A DNA stretch of 64,000 nucleotides from the NCBI GenBank assembly GCA_023265455.1, contig JAHFTQ010000006.1, positions 30,746 through 94,745 on the forward strand, written 5' to 3'. Every line of letters starts with the position of its first letter. Within the stretch, counting starts at the first letter, position 1. Below, piece by piece: positions 53,161 through 53,397 of this stretch. This stretch comes from Parachlamydiales bacterium (lineage in GTDB: Bacteria > Chlamydiota > Chlamydiia > Chlamydiales > Rhabdochlamydiaceae). Below the pieces are notes generated by a model. It searched no databases and was not told the origin of the DNA. It was given only the letters and a program-made list of their open reading frames with translations. The position numbers were made by a program, and so were the translations under genes.

Positions 53161-53397
53161 TGCCATGTGCAACTTTTAGCACACTATCCAACTGATCAAG
53201 TTATGGCGGTAAATTTCATCAGCGCAGAGGCGCTTCGCGCGGGAGAGACGCTGAGGACGCAGAGAGGAAATTTAAAAATTCCCCTCTGCGTTCTCAGTGT
53301 CTCATGCTTTGCACGGAGTGCCTCTGCGCTGATGAAACTCATACTCTTAGGACAAAATACTGACAACTACGTGATATGACAAAAGTTGCACATGGCG
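53161..53397. repeat. Family A MITE-like element, copy A3 (237 bp; arms inverted relative to A2, core in the same orientation)
   Basis: TIRs tgccatgtgcaactttt / aaaagttgcacatggcg. The left arm here is the reverse complement of the A2 right arm. The asymmetric core (gcttcgcgcgggagagacgc on the left, gtctcatgctttgcacggag on the right, loop ggaaatttaaaaattcccc) reads the same way as in A2. Confidence 0.85.

Follow-up and report, generated by a model that had tools for sequence, protein, structure and literature searches.

Bacterial MITEs, such as the Correia elements (CREE) of Neisseria, ERIC/IRU, RUP, and Nezha, are short non-coding elements of intergenic regions. They are bounded by terminal inverted repeats (TIR), are flanked by target site duplications (TSD), occur in several copies at unrelated loci, and have a strong hairpin potential. 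REP sequences are another kind of short structured repeat. They are 20–40 nt long, carry a GTAG/CGTC tag, and flank a RAYT gene, which belongs to the Y1 (HUH) family; in REPINs they form inverted doublets. The intervening sequences of 23S rRNA are built of a long inverted repeat around one ORF and also exist in ORF-less versions.

The reversal of a segment relative to its surroundings is also known. In parvovirus ITRs and poxvirus telomeres, two reverse-complement forms (flip and flop) of an imperfect palindrome are produced when hairpins are transferred at the termini of linear replicons, in a ratio of about 1:1. In inverted-repeat (IR) spacer inversion and in the hairpin-loop “flip-flop” of chloroplast DNA, a segment between short inverted repeats is reversed within co-linear sequence, sporadically among related copies and without a recombinase (PMC8604942, PMC8794818, and PMC12928735). 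PMC8604942 and PMC8794818 name template switching between short inverted repeats as a cause of both IR spacer inversion and arm homogenisation.

The window, i.e., the whole 64,000-nt stretch of DNA analyzed here, belongs to a Rhabdochlamydiaceae-like genome: the nearest named homologues of its PriA come from Rhabdochlamydiaceae (76%), Rhabdochlamydia (60%), and Parachlamydiales (58%). It contains two copies, A2 and A3, of a non-autonomous, TIR-bounded, MITE-like transposable element, in which two arms (X and Y) enclose a palindromic core (Table 1). The first-pass annotation put the length of the element at 237 bp; with its 18-nt TIR, A[C/T]GCCATGTGCAACTTTT, it is actually 239 bp long. The 16-nt part of the TIR has four exact occurrences in the window, in A2 and A3 only, and 0.83 chance matches are expected at up to three mismatches. 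Target duplications of 7 bp at A2 and of 6 bp at A3 are present on both sides. As in the described MITEs, the element is small, intergenic, and non-coding, encodes no transposase, and is found in several copies, each with different neighbors (A2, A3, and the copies B1 and C1 described below). Its hairpin potential is strong: the ssDNA folding energy is −86.6 kcal/mol for A2 (z = −16.6) and −69.6 kcal/mol for A3 (z = −10.9).

Unlike these MITEs, the element has as its center a second, unrelated, widely distributed palindrome, and in one copy this center is flipped. A parent IS sharing the ends of the element was found neither in the window nor in ~27 kb of flanking and related contigs. The outer TIR had no matches in viral contigs, and a blastn search with A2 against plasmid and phage collections gave no match. 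The arms X and Y show no detectable relationship to each other, either as complements or as direct copies, as neither comparison scored above shuffled sequences. A weak TIR-like match at 369–384 sits inside priA and was rejected as a chance one.

Table 1. Coordinates of the composite elements, their parts and flanking duplications, and the solo core in the window
Feature	Position	Strand	Remarks
Solo core A1	186..312	.	palindrome of M-loop-M type, both halves short-type; left terminus decayed; no outer TIRs or arms
A2 left TSD, TAAACTA	17223..17229	.	with the element's first base gives the TAA stop of the 601-aa ABC gene
Composite A2 (239 bp)	17230..17468	.	X arm – short half – loop – long half – Y arm; minority configuration
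A2 outer TIR, left	17230..17247	+	ACGCCATGTGCAACTTTT
A2 arm X (43 nt)	17248..17290	+	from the alignment
A2 core (124 bp)	17291..17414	.	short M ~17291–17345, loop ~14 nt, long M ~17360–17414
A2 arm Y (36 nt)	17415..17450	+	from the alignment
A2 outer TIR, right	17451..17468	-	
A2 right TSD, TAAACTA	17469..17475	.	with the element's last base gives the stop of the convergent 583-aa ABC gene
A3 left TSD, GTATTG	53154..53159	.	
Composite A3 (239 bp)	53160..53398	.	arms inverted relative to A2; on the plus strand Y' arm – short half – loop – long half – X' arm
A3 core (124 bp)	53214..53337	.	co-linear with the A2 core on the plus strand, 116/124
A3 right TSD, GTATTG	53399..53404	.	

The only ORFs within the element are 48–70 aa long and read through the palindrome on both strands: 17249–17461 (−), 53167–53379 (+), and 53196–53366 (−). 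ORFs of this kind are called as genes in public predictions (P0001, P0002, P0123, P0124). They are almost certainly spurious, though handy as handles for finding copies: further copies were sought via the 70-aa ORF by a protein-database search with a cluster look-up, which gave two clusters with four sequences. B1 and C1 are copies at other loci, on metagenome contigs of the same organism. B1 (L013:2225-2435) has a truncated right arm, and C1 is known only as a translated ORF (P0124). The count of four composites (A2, A3, B1, and C1) is that of the copies retrieved in this way and not a census. The ~15 kb flanking the window on both sides, to which the contig was extended by exact protein matches, holds no further copy.

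The whole 239-bp unit moves as one piece. Its TIRs occur only at these elements, A2 and A3 bear target duplications, and A3, B1, and C1 share one internal arrangement. A core-less outer element was found neither in the window, nor in ~27 kb of extra sequence of the same organism, nor in the viral, plasmid, and phage collections, a search that covered ~3% of the genome.

The element marks genome plasticity at both of its sites in the window. A2 occupies the entire intergenic space between two convergent ABC-transporter genes and sits precisely between their overlapping stop codons. At the empty site these two genes would overlap at their stop codons in CTAAACTAG. Because the TAAACTA duplication together with the first or the last base of the element restores a TAA stop for each gene, both ABC proteins are unchanged. 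A3 lies at a strain-variable junction. In other samples (L010:1-580 and L011:1-475, compared with 51058–53160 of the window) its left flank is unrelated and contains a membrane-protein gene, the left TIR reads GCCATGAGC, and there is no TSD. On the window-specific side of A3, an 80-aa ORF comes after the gene of a 572-aa protein with a RelA_SpoT domain; the two could be a toxSAS-type toxin-antitoxin pair.

The first-pass annotation claimed that the arms of A2 and A3 run in opposite directions while their cores read alike on the plus strand. Alignment bears this out. A repeat search in the window returned both arm pairs as inverted repeats, 17230–17317 versus 53311–53398 (88 nt, 94% identity) and 17388–17471 versus 53157–53240 (84 nt, 90%), and the two cores as a gap-free direct repeat (94%). 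If A2 is aligned with the reverse complement of A3, so that arm X is on the left in both, the cores match at 116/124 positions without gaps when one of them is flipped, and only at 103/127 with six gap columns when the core is left with its arms. The latter value merely reflects the self-complementarity of the core, since the core matches its own reverse complement at 104/127. The core is an imperfect palindrome, as had been supposed. The orientation markers comprise ~20 mismatches and a 3-nt indel (both halves counted), and all of them are concordant: the “short” half, GCGCGGGAGAGACGC, the “long” half, GCGCAAAGCAGGAGACGC, which is 3 nt longer, and the asymmetric loop.

These asymmetries are not random mismatches, because the short and long halves are present again in B1 and, at the protein level, in C1. 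B1 has its arms in the A2 order, and its core is the reverse complement of the A2 core at 121 of 124 positions (97.6%); B1 as a whole matches the reverse complement of A3 at 92.9% over 211 nt. In the translation of C1, the short half adjoins arm Y', as in A3. Thus, three copies (A3, B1, and C1) have the configuration X-long…short-Y, and A2 alone has X-short…long-Y. The uncoupling of core orientation from arm orientation stands, and by majority it is A2, not A3, that holds the unusual arrangement. The closest pair is A2 and B1, with 59/60 identical positions in arm X and 121/124 in the (flipped) core, and A3 is their outgroup both in arm X (58/60) and in the core (116/124). As the histories of arm and core agree, a single late flip is enough for the data; with three taxa such an agreement has one chance in three of being accidental.

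An inverted arrangement within a palindromic repeat could be an assembly artefact, i.e., a wrong path taken through the repeat in a de Bruijn graph. The repeat does confuse assemblers, as several contigs (L009, L012, L017, L018, and L064) end inside the element, which is usual for a repeat that is dispersed. Nevertheless, we assign hardly any probability to this explanation. Five samples and two assemblers yielded five further contigs of the A2 locus, and these have the same orientation or the same junction of arm Y' with the long half. Among them, the MEGAHIT contigs (k=141) of three samples are identical and extend over the whole 124-nt core and both arms, and two Logan contigs independently join arm Y' to the long-type half. 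The A3 arrangement is seen again in L010 and L011.

The same contigs bear on the suggestion that the core is a programmed inverton, in which a site-specific recombinase flips it between the inverted repeats and so alters the expression of neighboring genes. A segment bounded by inverted repeats does occur here in two orientations, but these sit at different loci and not at one. The five A2-locus contigs from five samples are identical in this respect, none of them shows the other orientation, and A3 is likewise fixed at the consensus level. The neighboring genes encode ABC transporters, EamA, HtrA, His_Phos_1, Peptidase_M50, AA_permease, a DEAD helicase, and the RelA_SpoT-domain protein, with no recombinase among them. 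Moreover, flipping a segment that is self-complementary at 104/127 changes almost nothing, and A2 lies between two convergent stop codons. Such a switch seems to us scarcely more credible than the artefact, and even jointly the two are very improbable.

Terminal-repeat inversion, conversion between copies, re-insertion of a mobile core, and a recombinase switch are four routes to the same final sequence. Our preferred reading, to which we give slightly better than even credence, is a nested MITE-like composite with one in-situ IR spacer inversion on the branch leading to A2. This event would have turned the core interior round once relative to the arms, with end points inside the 21–27-nt terminal inverted repeats of the core (TTTCATCAGCGCAGAGGCGCT...), which in A2 are identical over 21 nt and match at 26 of 27 positions. 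The route would be either a template switch during replication of the hairpin or recombination of one repeat with the other, and the flip would be no switch but a neutral mishap of a sequence prone to form hairpins. For RecA-type recombination, repeats of 21–27 nt are about as short as is workable, and the case for the mechanism is therefore one of analogy; at no locus was an inversion caught in progress. The anatomy, the TSDs, the discordant orientation, the family membership of the core, and the fixed orientation at the A2 locus are shown, while the mechanism of the flip and its timing, after the formation of the composite, are inferred.

Several observations favor spacer inversion: discordance is confined to a minority (one of four copies), the relationships of arms and cores agree, the arm/core junctions are identical in both configurations, the core starts with the same 21 nt from either end, no empty outer element was found, and the hairpin potential is extreme. 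Within these 21 nt the end points of an inversion would be invisible. Additionally, template switching between short inverted repeats is documented (PMC8604942), and the hairpin-loop flips of chloroplast DNA are a parallel to the A2 flip (PMC12928735). Unlike the described cases, the A2 spacer is 70–82 nt long and is itself a quasi-palindrome, and the event took place inside a transposable element and is therefore seen between paralogous copies.

The likeness to parvovirus and poxvirus isomers lies in the imperfect palindrome that has two reverse-complement forms relative to flanking unique sequence, and in a small internal hairpin in each half of the palindrome. In contrast to those isomers, the element is chromosomal and internal, its forms stand at 1:3 among the copies, and each locus is fixed. 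Both nested MITEs and IR spacer inversions are already known, and the A2 flip is tidy but unsurprising; it is a clean natural case of IR spacer inversion within a transposable element. Flipped cores will be mis-aligned wherever annotators or repeat classifiers take the ends of the copies to set their orientation.

Re-insertion is a serious rival, because a solo core exists, although we regard it as unlikely. According to this explanation, a separately mobile core was inserted at least twice into one and the same site of the outer MITE, or left it and came back. Its symmetric ends would permit either orientation, and A2 and A3/B1/C1 would descend from different insertion events. The solo core A1, which has no arms, lies 22 nt downstream of the priA stop codon. 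It is missing from the orthologous spacer in two related species (L075 and L076; PriA identity 80% and 76%), where 23 nt and 61 nt separate priA from the same downstream gene. A1 is therefore a lineage-specific insertion, and the core can arrive alone. The same pair of modules that makes up the core also has many different flanks elsewhere and is found in another lineage-specific outer element. There is no target duplication or consensus target around the core, so insertion would be scarless, and excision or insertion of a mobile core in either orientation would leave exactly the sequence that is observed. As a side observation, the flank of A1 (313–328, cttgtcctaagtattg) and arm X of the composite have TTGTCCTAAG..TAT in common, but facing the other way with respect to the core; roughly counted, the probability of this by chance is ~0.01.

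Re-insertion, however, needs exactly the same nucleotide to be hit twice. The empty outer element that it supposes was not found in the window, the ~27 kb of additional sequence, or viral contigs, though such elements could exist in the remaining ~97% of the genome. A2 and B1 are nearly identical in both arm and core, and a B1-like empty element and a B1-like core would have to meet by chance. Finally, A1 is only 76–78% similar to the composite cores and has two short halves; it is a diverged relative and not a recent product of the composite, and it gives no evidence of a recently active solo source. Of the two mechanisms that had been offered for the uncoupling, core inversion between flanking repeats and a mobile palindrome nested in an older MITE, both keep some probability, with the evidence on discordance leaning to inversion. 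The nested palindrome holds as anatomy, given the TIRs and TSDs, the separate core family, and the solo core, but it is not favored as the origin of the A2 flip. The core-only relic at 186–312, cited in its support, demonstrates that a core can exist alone and does not show that the A2 orientation arose by insertion.

Gene conversion would have swapped the polarity of the A2 core without physical inversion: a composite in the opposite orientation elsewhere in the chromosome overwrote the core interior after aligning in parallel via the palindromic core termini. Over 21 nt these termini read the same in either direction, which would let a donor pair in either register, and the opposite arms and co-linear cores of A2 and A3 are just the geometry that the model needs. 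Recombination at the elements does occur, as the unrelated left flank of A3 in other samples, with its variant TIR and lacking TSD, demonstrates. On the other hand, the homology anchors would be very short. The A2 core is closer to that of B1 (121/124) than to that of A3 (116/124), hence A3 was not the donor. The outcome would be indistinguishable from in-situ inversion. We consider conversion rather improbable.

The core consists of two modules of ~55 nt, here called M, placed head to head. An alignment of real relatives gives M as a ~52-nt sequence, TTCATCAGCGCAGAGGC – GCNC-loop-GNGC – (A/G)GCAGAGACGCAGAGGACGCAGAG. The relatives were found by scanning genomes and metagenomes with the core terminus, a search with many chance matches. 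The genome collection, in which the source genome is not included, gave six real relatives and two chance matches, and the metagenome scan gave 40 loci, of which about two thirds are chance matches. Altogether the real relatives number ~17, and every one of them comes from an uncultured bacterium's contig. Viral contigs gave no matches to the core terminus, and the window's outer TIR was found at none of the 40 metagenome loci.

The mini-hairpin of M is intact in 27 of 30 modules, and one of its stem positions is G:C in 23, A:T in five, and C:G in one. Pairing was counted directly in each sequence, since loops of differing length shift the columns of the 3' strand when the modules are aligned with MAFFT. 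The loop is 3–5 nt long, and paired changes are seen across lineages, including GCAC..GTGC in the long half of A3 versus GCGC..GCGC in A2. Such conservation reflects either selection for a local stem or arm homogenisation by template switching (described in PMC8794818).

Some M pairs enclose a gene, as seen on metagenome contigs of the Chlamydiales type. At two loci, L007 and L020, inverted M modules (91 nt at 100% identity and 53 nt at 98%, respectively) enclose an ORF of 141–142 aa, which belongs to PF13366 PDDEXK_3 / TIGR04256 GxxExxY with E = 1e-38 to 1e-41. Three extra GxxExxY genes were picked by protein similarity alone, two of them from sequences named “Chlamydiales bacterium” by NCBI. 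Two of the three lie inside long inverted repeats (74 nt at 96% in L071 and 110 nt at 92% in L073), which contain CGCAGAGG-type motifs and match the M profile weakly. The third, in L069, has an ORF-less M pair just downstream. After the GxxExxY gene, this chlamydia-like genome of 2.2 Mb has three tandem 49-nt units (L069:10440-10600) and then the ORF-less pair at 10604–10855.

The cores of the window match the M profile with E = 1e-12 to 1e-15 and have the features of this cassette: an inverted M pair, the TTCATCAGCGCAGAGGC terminus, the GCNC-loop-GNGC mini-hairpin, and iterated CGCAGAG. A tblastn search found no GxxExxY coding sequence in the window or the flanking contigs. As there is no such coding sequence and the core loop is only ~14 nt, the window copies are miniature derivatives and not full members of the cassette family. 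Judged by sequence similarity, the core is a miniature, without the gene, of a hairpin cassette whose counterparts in related bacteria surround a gene of the GxxExxY (PD-(D/E)XK) family. Within the limits of our search of the literature on GxxExxY, PDDEXK_3, and chlamydial MITEs and palindromic repeats, we found no published description of this family. The link between the hairpin cassette and GxxExxY is a more novel lead than the flip. The identity of the core as a structured ~52-nt module that is paired around GxxExxY genes is also the more useful result.

The core family is widely spread, with other flanks and sometimes with a gene as cargo, and M modules spread as gene-less miniatures in environmental chlamydiae. 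M pairs occur both head to head and tail to tail at many loci. In a second lineage (L005/L045, L008/L041, and L006/L034), an M pair is central in a different TIR-bounded outer element. Comparison of L005/L045 with L008/L041 shows arms and core interior flipped together; thus, coupling of arms and core is the rule. In L006:4273-4300 and L034:8675-8702, the arms of this composite are intact and the core has shrunk to 28 nt (TTTCATCAGCGCAGAGGCACTGATGAAA), which looks like a deletion of the palindrome interior. At L006:4201-4370, the second-lineage arms share a direct repeat of ~30 nt (AAAGCTTATACAGAGCAAGTCTTCAAGG / AAAGCCTTATGCAAAGAGTCTTCAGGGG) while the TIRs are inverted, and none of 500 shuffles scored as well; the repeat may be another flipped segment in a hairpin element.

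“Inside-out” M pairs, whose modules face away from each other across a 50–60-nt spacer and which have CTCTGCG ends, were seen at L025:5030-5200, L029:2700-2850, L036:3525-3690, L037:6590-6760, and L046:640-800. One soil metagenome contains three copies of such pairs with different flanks. The spacer in L036 and L037 holds ATGTGCAACTT, i.e., 11 nt of the window's outer TIR.

Like REP sequences with their RAYT genes, M is a short structured module that forms inverted doublets, has no target duplication, occurs in both polarities, and flanks a small gene of a nuclease superfamily in inverted orientation. Unlike REP, it is ~52 nt long, starts with TTCATCAGCGCAGAGGC, and has no GTAG/CGTC tag. The gene that M encloses is a PD-(D/E)XK GxxExxY gene and not a Y1 HUH transposase gene, and its partnership with M is putative. 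The likeness to the 23S rRNA intervening sequences is in the long inverted repeat (53–110 nt) around one ORF of ~130–145 aa and in the existence of ORF-less versions. In contrast to them, the elements described here are not in rRNA, and their ORF belongs to PDDEXK_3 / TIGR04256. At the gathering threshold, Rfam has no family, rRNA included, in the whole window, and the elements lie between protein-coding genes.

The function of GxxExxY / PDDEXK_3 proteins is listed as unknown (PMC3424549), and the family is very large: a single query had matches in more than 7,000 clusters at E < 1e-20. By analogy with RAYT and REPIN, M modules and the GxxExxY protein might form a partnership of a nuclease and a hairpin repeat, in which the nuclease would recognize the single-stranded M mini-hairpin and mobilise or process M doublets. 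This idea is speculative, and we would give it little weight. If it were true, the A2 core flip, the inside-out M pairs, and the flipped arm segments would be footprints of hairpin nicking and copying (of the flip/flop type) and not random replication errors. A fixed DNA partner gives the GxxExxY family a concrete substrate to test.

Other structures were observed in the window and near it. At least four other long or nested palindromic elements are present, at 11043–11208, 11254–11420 and 49236–49406, 41285–41450, and 46125–46305. Their arms are 31–81 nt long and 86–97% complementary, and their sequences are unrelated to A2 and A3; the element at 11.3 kb is a relative of the one at 49.3 kb. 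Thus, hairpin repeats characterize this genome in general. The window is flanked by genes of BTB-domain, Fic, and autotransporter proteins, and a 915-aa BTB-domain protein adjoins its right end. Beyond this end, L064:1-383 encodes a ribonucleotide reductase large subunit with Hint/LAGLIDADG domains, which indicate an intein. The 3' part of a DEAD-box helicase gene contains three tandem units of 96–108 nt (58015–58323), which are 70–78% identical.
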